From an uncultured bacterium (GTDB taxonomy: Bacteria; Patescibacteriota; Minisyncoccia; UBA6257; 2-01-FULL-56-20): DNA of 64,000 bases. Location: contig OY970354.1 in NCBI GenBank assembly GCA_963718515.1, forward strand, positions 438,808-502,807, in the 5' to 3' direction. The position numbers and the translations under genes were made by a program. The notes under the pieces are model-generated. The model had not been told where the DNA came from and made no database searches. It saw only the letters and a program-made list of their open reading frames with translations. Within the stretch, counting starts at the first letter, position 1. The number at the start of each line of letters is the position of its first letter. Shown here piece by piece: positions 1,360-63,136 of the stretch.

Positions 1360-3111
1360 ATGAAATTACTTTTTGACTATATAAAAAAGCATAAGAAGGC
1401 GCTCACGCTGACGCTCGTCTTTGCGGCGGTCAACATCGCGTTTTCGCTCGTTGATCCGCAGGTCTTTCAGTTGATCATCGATAACTACGTGGCAAAGATC
1501 GGCTCGATATCCAACAGCGATTTCCTGCGCGGTGTGGGATTGCTCCTGCTCGTTTCCGTCACCGCGGCGCTCATTTCGCGCACGGCAAAAAACTTCCAGC
1601 AATATTACGAGAACATGGTGGCCCAGCGTGTCGGCACGGAACTCTATGCACATAGCGTCGCGCACTCGTTCTCATTGCCGTACGCGATCTTCGAGGATCA
1701 ACGCTCCGGCGAGCTACTGCAAAAATTGCAGAAGGCTCGGCTCGATGCGCAACAGCTCATCATCAGCTTCGTTGACGTGATCTTCGTTTCGTTGGTTGGT
1801 ATAATACTGGTGCTCATTTATGCGTTCTTCGTCAACTGGATCATCGGACTGCTGTACTTTATGGTCATTCCGATCATGGGCTCGGCATTGTTCTTTTTAG
1901 GAAAAAAGATAAAAGCGATCCAGAAAAATATCGTCATCGAATCGGCGAATCTGGCGGGCTCTACCACCGAGACGATCCGCAACGTCGAACTCGTGAAGAG
2001 CTTGGGGCTTGAGGAACAGGAAACCCAGCGTCTGAATGACGTCAATAATAAAGTGCTGTCGCTCGAGCTTTCCAAGCTGACGCTGATCCGCAAGTTGAGC
2101 TTTACCCAAGGCACGATTGTGAACGCCATGCGTTCGATCATTTTGTTCGTCATGCTCTGGCTGATATTCCTGGGGAAGATCTCGCTTGGAGAGTTCCTCG
2201 CACTGTGGTTCTACTCCTTCTATATCTTCTCGCCGCTCGGTGACATCGGCACGGTCGCGTCGCAATACCAGGAGTCGCGCGGGAGCATGGAGAAGCTTGA
2301 GGAGATCCTCGCCATTCCTTCCGAAGAAAAGCCCGCACATCCGGTTACGGTTGATTCGTTGAAGACGGTCGAGTTCAAAAATGTTGATTTCGGATATCAG
2401 AGCGGCGCGCTTACCGCATTGCAGAACATGAATCTTACGATCAAGAGCGGCGAGACGGTGGCGTTCGCCGGATATTCTGGTTCGGGGAAGACGACCCTGA
2501 TCAAACTGCTCGTCGGATTGTATAAGCCCACCAAGGGCACGATTTTATTGAACGGCGTGAGCGGAGATACTGTCGACTACGATGCCCTGCGCCGGAAGAT
2601 CGGATATGTATCGCAGGACACCCAGCTTTTTGCGGGAACCTTGCGCGAGAACCTTATCTTCGTGAATCCCACAGCGACTGATGACGATTGCTGGAATGCT
2701 CTCCGAAGCGCGTCCGTAGAGGCGATCGCGGAACGCGGCGGCAGCGGTCTTGACACGAAGATCGGCGAAGGCGGCATCAAGATCTCCGGCGGCGAACGCC
2801 AGCGCCTTGCCATTGCGCGTGCCCTGTTGCGCGATCCCGAATTGATCATCTTCGACGAGGCGACGTCAAGCCTGGATTCCATCACGGAAAAATCGATCAC
2901 GGAGACGATCCACCAGATCGCGAAGTCGCGCCCGAATCTTATCACGGTGATGGTCGCGCACCGGCTTTCCACGCTCGCGCGCGCCGATCGCATTTACGTC
3001 ATGCGCAAAGGCAATGTGGTGGAACAGGGGAGCCACGCCCAATTACTTAAGAATCCGGACGGACTCTACTCGGCGCTTTGGAAGGAACAGAGCGGCAATA
3101 GCGAATCATGA
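1360..3111 (+). CDS. ABC exporter, fused transmembrane + ATP-binding protein (MsbA/MdlB type)
   Basis: 583 aa with a six-TM N-terminal half. Motifs are Walker [10 protein letters not shown], signature [14 protein letters not shown] and Walker [13 protein letters not shown]. Confidence 0.9.
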
Positions 3112-6091: not shown

Positions 6092-7348
6092 ATGATCGCC
6101 ACTAAATCATACAAAACCCTTCCCGAAATGCCGGGTGTCTACATTATGAAAGACGCCGCCGGGCGTGTTTTGTATGTGGGCAAGGCGGGCAATCTGCGCC
6201 GCCGCGTGTCGAGCTATTTCGAGCGGCCGCATGACGTGCGCATTCAGACGCTTGTCGGCAAGATCAGCACGATCGATTTTGAAGAGAAAGATACCGCGCT
6301 CGAGGCGCTCATCCGCGAGGCGGAGCTGATTAAGACGATCACGCCACCGTTCAATGTGCGCGAAAAGGATGACAAGAGCTTTCTTTATTTCGAGATCACG
6401 CGAGAGAAGTATCCGCGCGTGTTGCTTGTGCGTGGAACTGGTGTGGCGGGCGGCGCCGTTGCGCAGGGCAAGCGCTTCGGTCCATTTACCTCGGCATCGA
6501 GCGCGCGCGAGGCCCTGCGGATATTGCGAAAGATATTTCCGTGGAGCACGCACGATGCGGAAGAGATCGGGACCCTCAAACGTCCCTGCTTCAATTACGA
6601 GATCGGACTGTGTCCGGGTACGTGCGTGGGCGCGGTCACGCACGAGGATTACATAAAAAATATCGACCGGCTTAACTTATTTTTTGAGGGAAAAAAGAAA
6701 AGCGTCATTCGCGCGCTTGAAAAAGATATGAAGGCGGCGAGCAAGGCGCAGGAATTCGAGAAAGCGGAAAAGCTCCGGCGTCAGATGTTTGCGCTTCAGC
6801 ACATCCGCGATACTGCGCTCATTTCTGACAACGAAGTGTTAATGAATGGCGTAGCGGTATTAAAATCCGGCCACCGCATCGAAGGATATGATATCTCGAA
6901 TATTTCTGGCACATCAGCGGTCGGTTCCATGGTGGTATTCGAGGATGGCGAGCCGAACAAGAATGAGTATCGTAAATTCAAGATCAAAAGTATTTTCCAG
7001 CCGAACGATGTCGGTATGTTGAAAGAAGTGCTCGAGCGGCGCTTTGCGCATTCGTTAGCGACCGAGCGCGGTGTGGTATCAATAAAAGACCGTTGGCCCA
7101 TGCCCGATCTTATATTGATAGACGGCGGCCTTGCGCAAGTGAACACGGCGCGGCGCGTTCTTCTCCGCGCGGGGCTTAAAATTCCCATCGTTGGTATCGC
7201 AAAAGGGCCAAAGCGCGACCGCAACGACATCATCGGGCTTATTCCAAAAGGGGTCCAAAAAGAGACGCTGATAAAAGTGCGCAACGAGGCCCACCGGTTC
7301 GCGATCAAATATCACAAAACACTCCGTGGTATTCGGTCACTCCACTAA
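6092..7348 (+). CDS. uvrC: excinuclease ABC subunit C (short form, no C-terminal HhH2 domain)
   Basis: 418 aa with a GIY-YIG domain (GVYIMKDAAGRVLYVGKAGNLRRRVSSYF) and a UVR motif (EFEKAEKLRRQMFALQHI). The RNase H-like endonuclease domain is present (IEGYDISNISG...LILIDGGLAQV...VRNEAHRFAIKYH). Confidence 0.9.
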   Translation: MIATKSYKTLPEMPGVYIMKDAAGRVLYVGKAGNLRRRVSSYFERPHDVRIQTLVGKISTIDFEEKDTALEALIREAELIKTITPPFNVREKDDKSFLYFEITREKYPRVLLVRGTGVAGGAVAQGKRFGPFTSASSAREALRILRKIFPWSTHDAEEIGTLKRPCFNYEIGLCPGTCVGAVTHEDYIKNIDRLNLFFEGKKKSVIRALEKDMKAASKAQEFEKAEKLRRQMFALQHIRDTALISDNEVLMNGVAVLKSGHRIEGYDISNISGTSAVGSMVVFEDGEPNKNEYRKFKIKSIFQPNDVGMLKEVLERRFAHSLATERGVVSIKDRWPMPDLILIDGGLAQVNTARRVLLRAGLKIPIVGIAKGPKRDRNDIIGLIPKGVQKETLIKVRNEAHRFAIKYHKTLRGIRSLH

Positions 7349-7947
7349 TTAATGATGGTGATCGGACCACTTACGAGATCTCCAAGGCCGTTCCCGTCAA
7401 AATGGATACGGATCGAATACGTGCCGGGCACGACATCTTTTTGGTCCGCGCCATATCGTGAGAGGTAGATCGACCGGGCATCCCAGCTGTACGACGTTTG
7501 TTTCGGGCCGGTTTCCGAGAGGATGACGCCGATGAAGGCCTTTGTCGTCGCGTTGACCAGCTCTATCTCACCCGTGATATTAGCCGGGTTGTCCCACGCG
7601 ATCGGGTTCGGCTGGCCGATCGTCCAAACATTGTTCGCGATGGGCGTCATGAGATCGATCGTGATACTCGGCCCGGGAAGTGCCGGGATCGAGCCACCGC
7701 CGCGCGAGCCGGATGATTTTTGTGGCGTCGTTGGTGCCGGAGATGTGGTTATATCCACATTCGTCACCGTGGTGACGGTCGTCGTTGTATCCGAAGCTTC
7801 GGTGCTGGTTTGTGCTATGTTATTTTGCGCCGACGGCACCCCGGTCGCACCCTGCCCGTGAAAAAAAACAATAGCGAGGGTTACCCCCGCAACGACGATG
7901 ACCGCGCCAATAGCGATCGCGACCCATCGCGCCTTCAATATATCCAT
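7345..7947 (-). CDS. secreted/membrane-anchored hypothetical protein with Thr-rich linker
   Basis: The start was moved to ATG 7945-7947 (MDILKARWVAIAIGAVIVVAGVTLAIVFF). That ATG lies 6 nt downstream of an extended -10 (TGGTATAAT, plus-strand 7954-7962). The protein has a signal anchor, a T-rich linker and a beta-rich C-terminal domain. Confidence 0.6.
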   Translation of the reverse strand: MDILKARWVAIAIGAVIVVAGVTLAIVFFHGQGATGVPSAQNNIAQTSTEASDTTTTVTTVTNVDITTSPAPTTPQKSSGSRGGGSIPALPGPSITIDLMTPIANNVWTIGQPNPIAWDNPANITGEIELVNATTKAFIGVILSETGPKQTSYSWDARSIYLSRYGADQKDVVPGTYSIRIHFDGNGLGDLVSGPITIIN

Positions 7948-13949: not shown

Positions 13950-14045
13950 GATGCTTGAATTTCTCTTCGAAAAAAGCGATACTCATATCCTATGAAACTC
14001 TCCATCGGCATAGTGGGAACACAATCGATAACAAAAAAAGCCAAG

Positions 14046-14076
14046 TAATTCCATTCGAATTTAGAATACGGCTACC
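14046..14076 (+). repeat. direct repeat copy 1 (relic 3' end of a small-gene paralogue)
   Basis: TAATTCCATTCGAATTTAGAATACGGCTACC matches 24/31 positions of 14396-14426. Both copies are preceded by an A7 run. Confidence 0.7.
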
Positions 14077-14203
14077 TTTGCCTCGGTATGCACGGGTGAT
14101 CGTGAGTCGCGATGAAAAGGGAAGGATAATCAGTTCTGCATCTGACTCTGTATAGCTCACGCTTGAGTATCTAACAATAACGCCATATTAAATAATTTAT
14201 TTC

Positions 14204-14398
14204 ATGCAACTTTCTGATAAAGATATCGCATCATTCCAAGCACTTTATAAAAAACGTTTTGGAAAAGATATTGATAAAAAAGAAGCACTTGAGCAGGGCA
14301 CGAAGCTAGTCCGGCTAATGCAGCTGATTTACAAACCAATGACGCAAGCCGAGTTTGATGCAGTTCAAGCACGCAGAAAAAAATCTCGTCGCATTTAA
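14204..14398 (+). CDS. small helical hypothetical protein (64 aa)
   Basis: The ORF MQLSDKDIASFQALYKKRFGKDIDKKEALEQGTKLVRLMQLIYKPMTQAEFDAVQARRKKSRRI lies in an AT-rich interval. No family was recognised. Confidence 0.45.
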   Translation: MQLSDKDIASFQALYKKRFGKDIDKKEALEQGTKLVRLMQLIYKPMTQAEFDAVQARRKKSRRI

Positions 14399-14426
14399 TT
14401 CCTTTCGAGTTTCGTATAAAGTTACC
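14396..14426 (+). repeat. direct repeat copy 2 (overlaps the stop of the 64 aa ORF)
   Basis: TAATTCCTTTCGAGTTTCGTATAAAGTTACC matches 24/31 positions of 14046-14076. Confidence 0.7.
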
Positions 14427-14517
14427 ATGCTGTGTTACCTGAGCTTTATGCTTGCGTGATGAGTGTTTTTTCCGTATAGTAGGCGGGCAGAAAAGCTCTT
14501 TCAAAACAGATCAGATC

Positions 14518-14856
14518 ATGGAGAAACGCATGAAAAAGGATAAGTACCTGCGCGCCCGCGGCGGCACGGCACGGATTCTCGACATCCATTGCGCAAGATG
14601 CGCCGCTTGGGTTTTGAAGTATCAGAAGGATGGCGTAGGGCAACTCCTGCGCTGTTACCTCAATCGGATTTTCGCTCCGCCGGAACTCGCTGCGCTGCAG
14701 CACAATCCGGGGATTAGGGAACCGAAAGACATGTCCAACCTCGCCTGTCCGAAATGCAGTACCGTCATCGGAACGCCGATGCGGTACGAAGACGGCAGAC
14801 TCGCGTACCGCCTCATGAAGGGAACGTACGCCAAGAAAATAGTGAAAGGAGAATGA
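14518..14856 (+). CDS. Zn-ribbon protein, paralogue A (CxxC ... CPxC)
   Basis: ATG at 14518; an alternative ATG at 14530 has GGAGA 6 nt upstream. Sequence: KDKYLRARGGTARILDIHCARCAAWVLKYQKDGVGQLLRCYLNRIF...NLACPKCSTVIGTP. It is about 45% identical to the product of 17111-17446(-). Its stop overlaps the next start (ATGA at 14853-14856). Confidence 0.7.
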   Translation: MEKRMKKDKYLRARGGTARILDIHCARCAAWVLKYQKDGVGQLLRCYLNRIFAPPELAALQHNPGIREPKDMSNLACPKCSTVIGTPMRYEDGRLAYRLMKGTYAKKIVKGE

Positions 14857-15680
14857 CCGTGGAACTGAATCTTCAGGCAGTTGCAAAGCGCACGGATCGA
14901 ACTGTCGAGGAGGTTCAGCGCCTCATCGACAAAGCCAAGCAATCAATGATTCCACTCGGCAAACAAGTAAGTGTCGCCGAAAACGGACTCACTCGATTTT
15001 TCATCGTAACCCGGCAAGGCGTCGGCCTCATCAAAACCCACTTCGGGAGATTTCATCAATTCGATTTCGGCATCGATGATGCGTGGGGCAAGTACTCAGT
15101 GCTGTTCTTCGGAACGCTCGACGATAATCTCATGCCAGTCTTCGCGCAGCAGGAACTTCTCTTGATGCGGATCGATTCGGGATGCGAAACGGGTCAGCTC
15201 TTCGGCGATCGCACATGCGAATGTCGAGAGCAGCTCGCGCTCGCGATGAAAACCGTCGCCGAACATGGCGAGGGACTCATCGTAAACATCCCGCGCCAAG
15301 ACGGACGAGGATTGGGGTTGCCCTTCAAGCTCGCGACATTGCGGCTTCAGGATGAACTCAAGCTCGATACCGTGGAAGCGGCGAATGCGGTTGCGCCGAA
15401 CGGCGTGATCGACATCCGCACCTACGGTGGCGTCATCGGCATCCTGAAATACTTCGGGATTTCGACGGCGACGAAGATCAATCTCGCGACAAACAATCCC
15501 GATAAAGCGGGAGTGTTCGCAGCGAACGGATATGCGGTCGCCGATTACACGCCGATCGTGATTCCGCCCACCGACCTTACGCGGGAACACCTCGAAGCGA
15601 AACAAGAGCATCTCGGCCATATCGGCCTCATTCAGCCAAGGGAAGGAGACCAAGATGAAGACATCCTGCCGAAGCCTTGA
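14853..15680 (+). CDS. GTP cyclohydrolase II-like enzyme with ~55 aa N-terminal extension
   Basis: 275 aa that aligns to RibA. Matching segments are RIDSGCETGQLFGDRTCECREQL (the C-x10-C-x-C zinc ligand pattern), RQDGRGLGL, DTVEAAN and LATNNPDK. Confidence 0.8.
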   Translation: MTVELNLQAVAKRTDRTVEEVQRLIDKAKQSMIPLGKQVSVAENGLTRFFIVTRQGVGLIKTHFGRFHQFDFGIDDAWGKYSVLFFGTLDDNLMPVFAQQELLLMRIDSGCETGQLFGDRTCECREQLALAMKTVAEHGEGLIVNIPRQDGRGLGLPFKLATLRLQDELKLDTVEAANAVAPNGVIDIRTYGGVIGILKYFGISTATKINLATNNPDKAGVFAANGYAVADYTPIVIPPTDLTREHLEAKQEHLGHIGLIQPREGDQDEDILPKP

Positions 15681-26477: not shown

Positions 26478-28373
<1,896 letters not shown>

Positions 28374-57906: not shown

Positions 57907-57960
57907 ATTGCTCTCCTTAGGTTGATGTGCCGCGTTCCATCATTACACCATGCGCCATTC

Positions 57961-57989
57961 TTGTCAATTTTCATCGCGCGTGCTATAAT
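57961..57989 (+). promoter_or_regulatory. rnpB promoter TTGTCA-17-(TG)cTATAAT
   Basis: TTGTCA at 57961-57966 and TGCTATAAT at 57981-57989. Confidence 0.65.
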
Positions 57990-57995
57990 CTTTTT

Positions 57996-58415
57996 GCTGG
58001 CAATCCAGACGGTCGCTGTGGTGGTGCGCGCTCCAAAAGCGCCGCGCCGCGCAGAGGAAAGTCCGGACACTCTCCGTGGTTGTGTAATGCGAAAGCGTCG
58101 CGCGACACGGATAAAATAGTAGCGGCTAACAGCCGCCGTTCGCAAGAATAGAGGTGCGAGCAGTGACGTCCACGTTGGAAACGACGTGGAGGACCCCATC
58201 CCGAGCTTGATGGTCTAATTCCGCCATAGGGACAAAAAAGCGGAAGTGAAACGGCAAAATCCTTACTGAGTGCAAGGCCGTGCTCTTCGTCCATCCGCAA
58301 GGATAGCCGGAGAGAGTGCCGCACCGAGCCCGCGAGCAATCAAGGGCCCAGATAAATGATCGTCCGTTCCGCGCAAGCGGAGCCGACAAAATCCGGCTTA
58401 TGTATTGCCAGCAAT
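57996..58415 (+). ncRNA. rnpB: RNase P RNA (bacterial type A-like)
   Basis: It has the conserved P4 5' strand GAGGAAAGTCCGGAC (58052-58066) and the 3' partner ACAAAATCCGGCTTATG (58386-58402). P1 pairs GCTGGCAAT (57996-58004) with ATTGCCAGC (58404-58412). The overlapping ORFs 57903-58199(-), 57983-58339(-) and 58126-58389(-) are spurious. Confidence 0.9.
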
Positions 58416-58420
58416 CAGAG

Positions 58421-58445
58421 ACCCGTCAGAAATGGCGGGTTTTTG
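58421..58445 (+). terminator. rho-independent terminator of rnpB
   Basis: ACCCGTC-agaaat-GGCGGGT followed by TTTT. Confidence 0.65.
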
Positions 58446-58507
58446 ATTGTGCCTTGCTAAGTTAGTAAAATTGTGATATTGTATGTCCAGCTGGGAGGCG
58501 ACAAAGT

Positions 58508-59544: not shown

Positions 59545-60855
59545 ATGGATCCTGAGGCACATGATAGGCGACGGGGCTTTACGCTTATTGAGCTTTTGAT
59601 AGTGATCGCAATCATCGCTATCCTTGCAGTGGTCGTGATTCTTGCTTTGAATCCCGCAGAGCTCCTTAAGCAATCGCGCGACGCGCGGCGGCTCTCTGAT
59701 ATTTCCACCATCACCAACGCATTGAATGTTTATGCCGCCGATCAGACGGGAAGCACCAATTTTTCTTTGGGCGTTGCTTCGGATACCTATCCCTCGGTAC
59801 CCGATCCTTCCGCCACCTCCACTGCAGGGGATCAGTGCCAGGGACTCGGCATGCCCGGATTCCTCGCTTCCACTGGTGAATCATGGCAATGCGCTGCTAC
59901 CGGAAATTATCGCGCTACAAACGCCACCGGCTGGGTTCCCGTCAATTTTTCCCACATATCATCCGGTGCCCCCATCTCGGCGCTCCCCGTAGATCCTATC
60001 AACCAAACCTCGTCGGGTTTGTTCTATAGCTACAATGCGTTGGGGACCCAGTTTGAGGTGGTGACGGACCTTGAATCCCAAAAATATAAAAGCAACTTCG
60101 GAAGTTTGTCCCAAACCATTGACTTCCCCGAGGTTATCTCCGGAGGAACTCCCGGGGTGTCTGCGCTCTACAATCCTTCGGGGCTTTTGGGATACTGGCC
60201 GATGGATGAGGGATCTGGCTCTACGACAATTGATCAATCAGCGAATTTGGGTAATGGAACATGGAATGGAACGCCGATCGGGAATAATAATACCTACTAC
60301 ACTACGGGCAAAGTGGGAGCGTATGCCGGGGATTTTGACGGAACCACGGATTTTAGCGACATCGCCAACCAGGGAAATTTCAGCTTTCCGAACACTACCT
60401 TTACTGTCGCGGGGTGGTTCCAGACGGTGACCACGGCGGATGATTACCTGGTCGGGAAGGAGGGTAATACGGCCGGATGGGGAGTCGTTATTGATGGATA
60501 TTGCAATACCTCCGGCAATCTGGTGGTGGTCATTAAAGATGCGACGAATAATGAATACTATGAATGTTCGACAAACAAGACTCTCGACGACGGCAGTTGG
60601 CATTTCTTTGCCGCGGTGATCACGACGAATACCACAAACGCCGCACTCCAGACCTCCACGATATATATTGATGGCCTATTGAATAATGGCAGTTGGGCGG
60701 CCGATGCGCTTCCGTACAGCGTTTCTTCGGCTGATTTGAGGATTGGGGCAAGAACTACGGGGGCATTCTTCTCGGGCAGTCTTGATGACCTGCGTATTTA
60801 CAGTCGGGCGCTTTCTGCTGCGGAAGTTGCGGCCCTATATGACGCAGAGCACTGA
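59545..60855 (+). CDS. type IV pilin-like protein with large C-terminal LamG/ConA-like lectin domain
   Basis: 436 aa with the prepilin leader MDPEAHDRRRG|FTLIELLIVIAIIAILAVVVI (class III signal). The C-terminus ...FFSGSLDDLRIYSRALSAAEVAALY is typical of LamG_3 domains. TGTTATAAT at 59530-59538 lies 6 nt upstream of the ATG. Confidence 0.8.
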   Translation: MDPEAHDRRRGFTLIELLIVIAIIAILAVVVILALNPAELLKQSRDARRLSDISTITNALNVYAADQTGSTNFSLGVASDTYPSVPDPSATSTAGDQCQGLGMPGFLASTGESWQCAATGNYRATNATGWVPVNFSHISSGAPISALPVDPINQTSSGLFYSYNALGTQFEVVTDLESQKYKSNFGSLSQTIDFPEVISGGTPGVSALYNPSGLLGYWPMDEGSGSTTIDQSANLGNGTWNGTPIGNNNTYYTTGKVGAYAGDFDGTTDFSDIANQGNFSFPNTTFTVAGWFQTVTTADDYLVGKEGNTAGWGVVIDGYCNTSGNLVVVIKDATNNEYYECSTNKTLDDGSWHFFAAVITTNTTNAALQTSTIYIDGLLNNGSWAADALPYSVSSADLRIGARTTGAFFSGSLDDLRIYSRALSAAEVAALYDAEH

Positions 60856-60981
60856 TCTGGGATATTTTTTTCCCCAGTTTCGGGGGCCTTTTCCACACAT
60901 TATGCACTTTGCTGGGTTTTAGGGCCATTTTTACTGGCTTTTTGGACTTGACGCGATTTTTACAGGGTATATATTTGTATA

Positions 60982-61582
60982 CAGCTAGACGGAAAAAATT
61001 TTGAGATTGTTGGTGCGACGGGTAGTATCGCGGTGGGTTCTTACCGAAAGAACAAACTTTGCGCCCGGGATGAGTCCTTGGAAAATGATGGGGTGTTCCA
61101 CCGTCTGACGGAGGAATGCAACAGAATGATCCTAGTGGATCGATCTCGGCCTACTTGGTCGGACAAAAACAGGAAAACGCTGAAGCGGCCAAAAGCCACC
61201 GAGGCGTGTATCGGAAAGGGGAGGTTGACCCGGCGCAAGCTGGGAATGCTCCGCGGGAAGTCTTTTCGCACATTGCGCGCCTCGTCCAGCGACGAAGCAA
61301 ACACAGCGAGAGGTATTCCTTTCCCCAATTTCTGCCTTCGGAGTCAATGGATGCTTCGAGAATAACGGTGTTTCACCGTGTCGAGACGAAAGTCTCTTCG
61401 CAGGAGGTTCCTGTTCCAACATGTCCACATGCGGAGAGTGGAGGAAGCTCTGCTTCATCGATCATTAGCCATTGAGGCTTGCGAAAGCGAACCGAGAAGG
61501 TAAACGATCTGAAGCAGTTGCTTCCCCACTCAACCGTATGGTTCACACCGAACGGGATTGCCACGCGCAACCCCGTTTTTTC
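60982..61582 (+). ncRNA. candidate ~600 nt highly structured RNA, unclassified
   Basis: This 755 nt gap is non-coding, with only overlapping low-complexity ORFs on both strands. The promoter TTGACG-16-TATATT lies at 60948-60975 and the terminator AACGGG...CCCGTT+T6 at 61551-61582. Many short perfect hairpins are present, several with GNRA loops: GTTCTT-accga-AAGAAC (61038), GAGAC-gaaa-GTCTC (61383), ACGGTG-ttt-CACCGT (61364), GGCTTGC-gaaa-GCGAACC (61475), GAAGC-tct-GCTTC (61444) and GAAGC-agtt-GCTTC (61512). Confidence 0.45.
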
Positions 61583-61611
61583 TTGTGGTATGATATTTAT
61601 ATTCTTGGAGA

Positions 61612-62433
61612 ATGGACAATCGTAACCATATTCACCATTCCACGCGCCACATAACATTCAGCTATCCGGTATCGCTGTGGCAAAGGATCCATTCGGCATT
61701 CACACCGCTCGCCCTCATTGCACTGCTCTTTGTGGTGCTTAAGGCCGCGTCGATTTTCCCCGCCTTTCCTTCTAATACGCTGACTCCCGAGCAGATCGGC
61801 CTTGCTCTCCTCGCTACCTTCGCGCGCCTTTTTGTTGCCTATCTCGCCGCCCTTGTCTTTTCCATCCCTCTCGCCCTGCTCGTTGAAAAAAATGCGCTTG
61901 CGGAGCGGATATTATTGCCCGCCTTCGATGTCGCCCAATCGGTGCCGGTGCTCGCATTTTTTCCGCTCATCATTGTTCTTTTTATTCATGTAGGTTTTCT
62001 TGAAGGCGCCGCCGTGTTCACGATTTTTATTACCATGGTGTGGACGATGGTGTTCAGTTTGGTGGGCGGCCTTAAGGTGATTCCGTCGGACATCAAAGCG
62101 GCGGCAAAGGTTTTTAATATCACCGGCTTTTCCTATCTTAAACGCATACTCATTCCCGCGATCGTTCCGTATCTTGTTACCGGTTCGATCCTGACGTGGG
62201 CGCAGGGATGGAATATTGTCATTGTGGCGGAAGTGCTCCACACGTATATTCCGGGCGGGACTTCGCGAGATGACCTTTTTGGCATTGGCAATGTGCTTGT
62301 GAAGGCGGCGGCGAGCGGACAGAATGGAACCTTCATCGTTGCGATCCTCGTGATGATCGCGGCGATTGCCCTCATTAATTTTTTCGTGTGGCAAAAATTA
62401 TTACACTATGCAGAACGATACAAGTTCGAATAA
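61612..62433 (+). CDS. ABC transporter permease (NitT/TauT-type BPD_transp_1)
   Basis: 273 aa with six TM segments and an EAA-like loop region (ITGFSYLKRILIPAIVPYLVTG). TGGTATGAT lies upstream at 61586-61594. Confidence 0.75.
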   Translation: MDNRNHIHHSTRHITFSYPVSLWQRIHSAFTPLALIALLFVVLKAASIFPAFPSNTLTPEQIGLALLATFARLFVAYLAALVFSIPLALLVEKNALAERILLPAFDVAQSVPVLAFFPLIIVLFIHVGFLEGAAVFTIFITMVWTMVFSLVGGLKVIPSDIKAAAKVFNITGFSYLKRILIPAIVPYLVTGSILTWAQGWNIVIVAEVLHTYIPGGTSRDDLFGIGNVLVKAAASGQNGTFIVAILVMIAAIALINFFVWQKLLHYAERYKFE

Positions 62434-63136
62434 CATCATCGTCTTCGATAAGGTTTCGAAGATCTACGAGCCGAATAAAGAGGTGGCTCTGCGCGACGTT
62501 TCATTTTCGGTGAAGAACGGCGAGTTTGCGTGCATCATCGGCCCGTCGGGCGGGGGCAAATCCACAATCCTCAAGCTAATTGCCGGACTTGAAAAAGAAA
62601 CATCCGGGACGATCACCAAGCCGGAGCACATCTCCATGGTATTCCAGGCCGGTGCGCTTCTTCCGTGGCTCACCGTGTTCGAGAACGTCGCGTTGGGATT
62701 GCGGGCAAAGAACGAGCCGGAGAATAAGATCAGGGCGACGGTGGATAAATATATAGCGATGGTGGGTCTGCGTGGCATGGAAGAAAAATATCCGAGGGAT
62801 CTTTCCGGCGGACAGCGCCAGCGGGTAGGCATCGCCCGCGCGCTCGCCGTCGATCCGGAAGTGCTTCTGCTTGATGAGCCATTCTCCGCGCTTGATCCAA
62901 AAACCACAGAAGAGCTCCATAAGGATGTGCTTGCGATCTGGACGCAGACAAAAAAGACCATCGTGATGGTTTCGCACCTTATAGAAGAAGCGGTATCGCT
63001 CGCCGATAGCATTCTTCTCATTAAGAATTACGGCGTCGATCACACATTCTTGATCTTGTTGCCCCGGCCGCGGAGGGAGAACGAAGCAACCTTTGCCCAC
63101 GAGGTGGTACAGGTGCGGAGGGAATTTTTCAAATAG
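62408..63136 (+). CDS. ABC transporter ATP-binding protein (NitT/TauT/SsuB-like)
   Basis: The start was set at ATG 62408 (MQNDTSSNNIIVFDKVSKIY). Motifs are Walker A GPSGGGKST, signature LSGGQRQRVGIARA and Walker B LLLDEPFSALD. Confidence 0.85.
   Translation: MQNDTSSNNIIVFDKVSKIYEPNKEVALRDVSFSVKNGEFACIIGPSGGGKSTILKLIAGLEKETSGTITKPEHISMVFQAGALLPWLTVFENVALGLRAKNEPENKIRATVDKYIAMVGLRGMEEKYPRDLSGGQRQRVGIARALAVDPEVLLLDEPFSALDPKTTEELHKDVLAIWTQTKKTIVMVSHLIEEAVSLADSILLIKNYGVDHTFLILLPRPRRENEATFAHEVVQVRREFFK

Follow-up and report, generated by a model that had tools for sequence, protein, structure and literature searches.

What occupies the 756 nt at positions 60856-61611, to which no gene has been assigned in the window of 64,000 nucleotides (the whole stretch of DNA that was analysed)? 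This uncalled gap is bordered on its 5' side by a LamG/N-methyl pilin-like gene (59545-60855) and on its 3' side by the gene of a NitT/TauT-type ABC permease (61612-62433), which together with the ATPase gene of the transporter spans 61612-63136. The relatives of the permease all belong to the Patescibacteria (CPR), the nearest named one being Paceibacterota. An earlier note on this DNA had described the gap as by far the longest of the window, with 755 nt. The length was reproduced to within one nucleotide, and the ranking turned out to be overstated, as the gap at 57907-58507 (about 600 nt) that holds the RNase P RNA is of comparable size. The latter RNA, of class A, was located at 57997-58415 on the + strand by a full-length model match (76.9 bits, E 1.5e-21); default annotation would miss it because its score lies below the Rfam gathering score of 100. 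A second long gap, at 27639-28299, was discarded as an artefact of a split dnaK. The two ORFs into which this gene (26478-28291, + strand) appears divided, 26478-27638 and 27515-28291, overlap and lie in different frames, which suggests a frameshift or faulty assembly around 27515-27638.

In order to find similar regions, the contigs around close relatives of the permease were searched with nhmmer. A sole homologue of the gap was obtained, at positions 6766-7460 of the contig L023 (E 1.5e-60). This contig represents the closest available relative, with a permease 86% identical and a pilin gene 72% identical to those of the window. The copy in L023 is also located in an uncalled gap, of 824 nt, and its neighbours differ: an unrelated 510-aa gene is found upstream and a convergent FAD_binding_4 gene downstream. 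The ABC operon follows 2.5 kb further on, with two minus-strand genes between the RNA and the operon. The weakly HD/dGTPase-like 510-aa protein is part of an island of accessory appearance (L023 1-6662) that borders the RNA and also includes Imm40, two DUF805 genes, YcxB and a glyoxalase/Ble-like gene. Alignment of both copies displayed blocks of about 20 identical nt, and the similarity ends directly after the T-run of the terminator described below. Conservation among relatives, on which the earlier note had made its proposal depend, was thereby observed in L023, with promoter, terminator and helices retained.

The alignment also allowed the limits of the unit to be revised. The earlier note had placed its start at 60948; conservation starts about 85 nt upstream of that position, at roughly 60872, and the conserved module would span roughly 60872-61581. 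Its 5' boundary (60872-60894, + strand) consists of a hairpin, CCCC-agtttc-GGGG (60872-60885), followed by CCTTTTCC. The L023 counterpart reads CCACA-atttt-TGTGG, again followed by CCTTTTCC. A C-G pair is replaced there by A-U in a compensatory manner, and the upstream genes are unrelated. This hairpin probably insulates the RNA unit from upstream transcription. Adjacent to it, upstream of the promoter, there is a near-invariant block of DNA, GGCCTTTTCCACACATTATGCACTTTGCTGGG, at 60885-60916 (no strand assigned), which can be written as GGCCTTTTCCACAC.TTAT.CACTTTGCTGGG. It matches L023 (about 6726-6757) at 30 of 32 nt, being better conserved than most of the RNA, and occurs once in the window, where none would be expected by chance. 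The consensus fold of the upstream part reaches merely -9 kcal/mol and leaves the block unstructured. A regulator controlling the RNA gene may bind to these 32 nt of DNA.

The good promoter announced by the earlier note, TTGACG-16-TATATT, is of the sigma-70 type and was found at 60948-60975 on the + strand with a scan score of 10/12; L023 carries TTGACG-16-TATTCT at the aligned position. The promoter stretch CTTGACGC.ATTTTTACA.GG is conserved and is present exclusively in the window and L023 among 43 loci. From its position we infer an RNA start near 60982. A direct repeat, GC.ATTTTTAC.GG, was observed at 60924-60937 and 60953-60966, one copy being the promoter spacer; in L023 the promoter copy alone is present. 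At the other end, the terminal hairpin with T6 is visible in the sequence as an intrinsic terminator at 61551-61581 (+ strand), with an 11-bp stem containing one A.C mismatch and the loop CACGC. Its letters are AACGGGATTGC/cacgc/GCAACCCCGTT (61551-61577), with the T6 at 61576-61581. The terminator scan missed the window copy because of the A.C mismatch in the stem, and it detected the L023 homologue, CGGGTTGC-cactgc-GCAACCCG plus T5, at the aligned position. Promoter and terminator are conserved together with the body despite the different flanking genes, which is the mark of an independent ncRNA gene, presumably a transcribed one.

The gap had been said to lack a credible ORF, and the source assembly annotates none of its ORFs as a gene. 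Pfam searches on six frames, tblastx against 20 related loci and a six-frame profile compared with 5.8 billion proteins revealed no protein remnant, as the earlier note required for its reading to stand. The purpose of this pseudo-protein profile was to pick up, among the 5.8e9 proteins, ORFs wrongly annotated across homologous RNAs. The ORFs of the gap were likewise absent from a collection of 15 billion proteins. Among 1.84e9 representatives, the sole match of a 119-aa ORF was rejected as a chance one, multiplied by identical tandem repeats in a protein of 2614 aa. In the L023 copy the longest ORF has 67 aa, and the ORFs of the window are not preserved. As read from the sequence, the locus has a gene-like anatomy and is non-coding.

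The absence of any family recognizable by eye was confirmed by an Rfam search. With Rfam 15 (4227 families, both strands), the window copy gave no match at the gathering score, and even at E<=10 both copies gave only trivial, short hairpin matches. The set included ROOL, GOLLD, OLE, HEARO, raiA, tmRNA, 6S, SRP, group I/II introns and riboswitches. For the window copy, the sub-threshold matches under lax filters were RnaG (E 1.5), BjrC68 (E 6.4) and a 14-nt hairpin resembling group II D5 (E 9.4); those of the L023 copy were of a similar nature. A tmRNA is recognized by a tRNA-like domain and a reading frame for the tag peptide; ARAGORN found two tRNAs and no tmRNA in the window, and no tmRNA model matched. 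Group II introns are characterized by a domain V that measures about 34 nt and contains the catalytic triad, by 5' GUGYG and 3' AY ends, and by an interrupted host gene. An ORF-less group II intron was considered and rejected: the 14-nt GAAA hairpin alone matches D5, and no gene is interrupted by the unit, which is equipped with a promoter and a terminator of its own. A CsrB-like sponge was rejected as well, as the counts of GGA (19 and 18) are unremarkable next to the roughly 12 expected by our own estimate.

The hairpin content was evaluated by comparing the counts of stems, GNRA caps and SGAAAG motifs with those of 500 dinucleotide shuffles. The SGAAAG motif (CGAAAG/GGAAAG), reported earlier to recur four times, was indeed found at 61045, 61213, 61387 and 61482, against 0.76 expected. 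Instead of the at least six perfect stems mentioned in the earlier note, 11 Watson-Crick stem/loop combinations of at least 5 bp were counted (9 distinct hairpins; 3.5 expected). The density of GNRA-capped hairpins, to which the same note had drawn attention, amounts to 4 capped stems, of which 3 are distinct, where 0.69 would be expected. Each of the three counts exceeds the shuffle expectation 3-5 times, with p values of about 0.002-0.004, and across the window a similar GNRA-cap density was observed in the RNase P RNA segment only. The minimum free energy (MFE) of the window copy corresponded to z = -4.7 on the + strand (100 shuffles), as compared with -5.7 for the RNase P RNA and a mean of -0.3 for ten control segments of the window; the L023 copy alone reached -9.1. 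This single-sequence measure does not favour the + strand, the value for the - strand being -6.1. One coding control, 15001-15600 in the GTP cyclohydrolase II gene, gave z -4.2 (20 shuffles) and was the sole outlier among the ten. The gene-poor stretch 13950-14753, a run of short ORFs, folds like its own shuffles (z about 0).

Both copies were compared with respect to selection. The RNA is identical at 67% of the aligned positions, as compared with 46% for the fourfold sites in the permease gene next to it, and 17 of the 20 indels are not multiples of three. The RNAalifold consensus comprises 140 pairs in 21 helices. Both copies retain every one of these pairs, 14 of which have changed on both sides and 26 on one side. 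Column-shuffled alignments gave -84 +/- 7.5 kcal/mol, well short of the -147 kcal/mol of the real consensus (z -8.5). Compensatory pairs are no more numerous in the two sequences than under the column-shuffle null (14 against 12.8), and strict covariation of the R-scape kind is therefore unproven with two copies. A less circular comparison is provided by permuting the substitutions among the same columns and folding each copy separately. The independent MFE folds of the real copies share 93 pairs, against 46 +/- 8 for the permuted ones (z 5.9), and the permuted sequences fold 39 kcal/mol worse. The + strand is favoured by the consensus energy (-147 against -118 for the - strand), and the promoter, the T-tract and the GNRA loops all lie on it. 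In the comparison with this one relative, the letters reveal conservation above the neutral level and point to structure-preserving evolution.

A model of the architecture was derived from the RNAalifold consensus and the helix table of these two sequences; all its elements lie on the + strand. The predicted RNA begins with an A-rich 5' leader (60982-61008), of low identity and with a 7-nt indel in the alignments. Domain 1 (61009-61167) is closed by helix P1, whose 5' strand 61009-61013 pairs with 61416-61420 and in which a G-C pair becomes A-U in L023. It contains five consensus hairpins, at 61037-61053, 61065-61081, 61093-61119, 61124-61145 and 61146-61162. The one at 61037 is invariant, and in those at 61065, 61093 and 61146 pairing is kept by compensatory or one-sided changes. 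Domain 2 (61168-61323) is closed by a long-range helix, AACAGGAA at 61168-61175 with 61408-61415. In the consensus fold it holds nested helices at 61177-61207, a variable region and hairpins at 61253-61269 and 61310-61323. The helix 61177-61181/61203-61207 carries two compensatory changes with respect to L023, and pairing within 61212-61300 is ambiguous, differing between the copies. A GCAA-capped hairpin at 61229-61244 is present in the window copy only. L023 has insertions of 13 nt and 21 nt in this domain, one of them forming a full additional hairpin, CAGC-UUCG-GCUG.

Domain 3 and the shared 3' strand occupy 61329-61420, with a closing helix at 61329-61335/61400-61406. Three hairpins are predicted there: 61337-61360, 61365-61379 (ACGGTG-ttt-CACCGT) and 61383-61396 (GAGAC-GAAA-GTCTC). 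The second shows two compensatory changes, reading ATGGCG/CGCCAT in L023. The third, misaligned in the consensus, is CAGAAC-GAGA-GTTCTG in L023, which adds three further compensatory changes and keeps the GNRA loop. An invariant contiguous 3' strand, 61400-61420 (GCAGGAG-G-TTCCTGTT-CCAAC), closes domains 3, 2 and 1 in turn, and the long-range helices stay paired through one-sided A-to-G and U/C changes. Domain 4 (61429-61539) would be an irregular hairpin of about 37 bp and about 110 nt, capped by a GAAA tetraloop at 61483-61486; it includes the inverted repeat I1 and helices H17-H20. A G-C pair at 61443/61525 is A-U in L023. A covariance model of this domain plus the terminator scored 182 bits for the window and 180 bits for L023.

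The distribution of the RNA was also assessed. Two copies are known, from two related organisms. A search for permease synteny in 185,579 species genomes yielded 20 loci, none of them similar to the gap by nhmmer, blastn or tblastx, and among 12 contigs around permease and pilin relatives the RNA was found in L023 alone. A long N-terminal extension of P0014 was considered and is not the RNA. In six other relatives no copy was found at a distance of up to 10 kb from the ABC operon, and the family may therefore be narrow and young. Over 350 kb of related loci, no extra copy was detected with the covariance model built on the 3' domain. Metagenome scans gave no match, either with the 119-aa pseudo-ORF as bait or with a three-frame pseudo-protein alignment built by hand from the two copies; from the latter only two weak patterns were drawn, and the result has little bearing on distribution. 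Viral pattern scans and blastn against phages and plasmids returned one chance match (L040) and nothing else. Gene-free stretches upstream of the ABC operon were observed in more distant CPR relatives (L013 1-1226, L020 2854-3962 and L016 about 2840-3000). They contain mutually similar units of about 70 nt, look like tRNA gene arrays and show no similarity to the gap.

The RNA immediately precedes the ABC operon, shares its strand and has a terminator that ends 30 nt before the ATG, which could suggest a giant cis-regulatory leader, that is a riboswitch or attenuator with the terminator as expression platform. In L023, too, the copy precedes this ABC block, at a distance of 2.5 kb and with its orientation retained. 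This interpretation is very improbable. In L023 the gene next to the RNA is convergent, and no riboswitch family matches. As the earlier note had claimed, the operon has its own -10 box: an extended one, TGTGGTATGAT, at 61586-61597 (+ strand), about 15 nt before the ATG, conserved in 9 relatives at equal distance from the ATG (about 13-17 nt across the clade). The extended -10 (TG-n-TAxAAT) was found at the same position in the window, L022, L023, L026, L030-L033 and L036. The RBS proposed with it, GGAG, is doubtful as a Shine-Dalgarno sequence because it ends 1 nt before the ATG, and the arrangement suggests that the mRNA of the operon is very short-leadered or nearly leaderless in this clade. 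As the operon keeps the -10 box found in its relatives, the RNA is not its leader. In addition, relatives with permeases 74-90% identical have spacers of 57-113 nt that lack the RNA, and two relatives show a direct, 'empty' pilin-ABC junction of 42-79 nt. The separateness of the two units, part of the earlier proposal, is in this way upheld. A decayed protein gene, for instance the missing solute-binding protein of the transporter, is a still more remote explanation. It would fit an operon that has no adjacent binding-protein gene and a gap with ORFs of 95-119 aa in four frames. Against it stand the lack of protein similarity in any frame, an identity well above that of fourfold sites, indels that ignore the frame and ORFs that are not shared. 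The promoter, the terminator and structure-preserving substitutions are conserved, and the relatives also lack an adjacent binding-protein gene.

Non-functional intergenic DNA, with stems due to chance or composition, could be argued from the one coding control in ten that reached z -4.2 and from the existence of two copies only. It is about as improbable as a leader: the hairpin, GNRA and motif counts (p about 0.003), the conservation above neutral, the consensus-fold z and the structure preserved by the real substitutions all speak against it, and so does the gene-poor stretch that folds like its shuffles. Somewhat less improbable, and still unlikely, is a divergent member of a known family (tmRNA, 6S, ROOL/GOLLD/OLE, an ORF-less group II intron, or a guide or omega RNA) missed by Rfam in CPR. 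RNAs of CPR can score low, as illustrated by the RNase P RNA 2.5 kb upstream with its 76.9 bits against a gathering score of 100, and the size is similar to that of ROOL and OLE (about 580-610 nt). That RNase P RNA is nevertheless detected at E 1.5e-21, and for the gap two divergent copies gave nothing better than E 1.5. Neither a tmRNA by ARAGORN nor repeats were found, and no RT, IscB/TnpB or Cas gene lies beside either copy. More weight, within the range of the unlikely, can be given to cargo or a remnant of a mobile or accessory cassette, in which discrete ends and shifting neighbours would reflect transfer and the function would serve the element. The sharp boundaries of the module, the 'empty' junctions in relatives and the island next to the L023 copy are in line with this idea, and ROOL and GOLLD also occur in variable or prophage contexts (PMC5737381). 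It is opposed by the finding of no more than one copy, both in the window and across 350 kb of related loci, by the lack of terminal inverted repeats and of a clear target duplication, and by the lack of an integrase or transposase nearby. No matches were found in viral contigs, phages or plasmids, and the side of the ABC block on which the RNA lies is shared by both genomes.

The locus is probably a stand-alone gene for a multi-domain structured ncRNA of about 600 nt, belonging to an undescribed family. The earlier proposal of a promoter-to-terminator unit that encodes a large structured RNA is supported by the anatomy, the folding statistics and the conservation in L023. In the mechanism envisaged, the sigma-70 promoter would start transcription near 60982 and the intrinsic terminator would stop it at 61581. 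The transcript would fold into four domains, three of them closed by the long-range helices that share the 3' strand 61400-61420 and the fourth being the long GAAA-capped hairpin. By analogy with OLE, ROOL and GOLLD, such a stable and structured RNA would most likely act in trans, either as a catalyst or by scaffolding proteins or itself, and it would not regulate the adjacent ABC operon.

Bacterial RNAs of comparable size and complexity are rare. OLE is similar in its length of about 600 nt, its high degree of structure and its probable action in trans with proteins. OLE adjoins the gene of its partner, oapA, in anaerobic Firmicutes; it differs in that no model match was obtained here and that the present RNA has no conserved flanking partner gene, its neighbours differing between the copies. 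The RNase P RNA of class A is comparable in GNRA-hairpin density, fold z (-5.7 vs -4.7) and nature as a stable RNA gene running from promoter to terminator; this RNA is already present at 57997-58415, and the new one shows no similarity to it. ROOL, which averages 581 nt (PMC5737381), shares the size (about 580-600 nt), the many hairpins, the multistem junctions, the stand-alone gene and the variable neighbourhoods (PMC5737381; PMC12286853). Its model does not match at E<=10, and ROOL occurs in Firmicutes, Fusobacteria and phages, often near tRNAs, whereas the present RNA comes from a CPR genome and has neither a tRNA nor a prophage in its vicinity. GOLLD is also a large multi-domain RNA of accessory regions; it is longer (about 800 nt) and tied to tRNAs and prophages (PMC5737381), and its model does not match either. 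Only rRNAs, group II introns and GOLLD are larger than ROOL, at roughly 580 nt (PMC5737381). By kind, the predicted RNA is among the few large structured bacterial RNAs, and by membership it falls, as judged from its nucleotides, in none of those families. Large ornate RNAs have repeatedly proved to be ribozymes or unusual assemblies (PMC12286853).

In the literature, no large non-coding RNA described for Patescibacteria/CPR was found. Genomes of CPR measure about 0.8-1 Mb and contain hardly any spare DNA. Since there is so little room to spare, a conserved non-coding unit of 0.7 kb suggests a useful role. It is conceivable, and can be put forward tentatively, that the RNA is the founding member of an undescribed Patescibacteria-specific class, of about 600 nt and four domains and with a biochemical job of its own. 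If this were true, the job might for example be catalysis, the formation of assemblies from RNA only or from RNA and protein, or a contribution to the host-dependent lifestyle, and the RNA would have a standing comparable to that of OLE, ROOL and GOLLD. If the family is wider, it would offer a new handle on the biology of CPR symbionts as well as a new subject for work on RNA structure.
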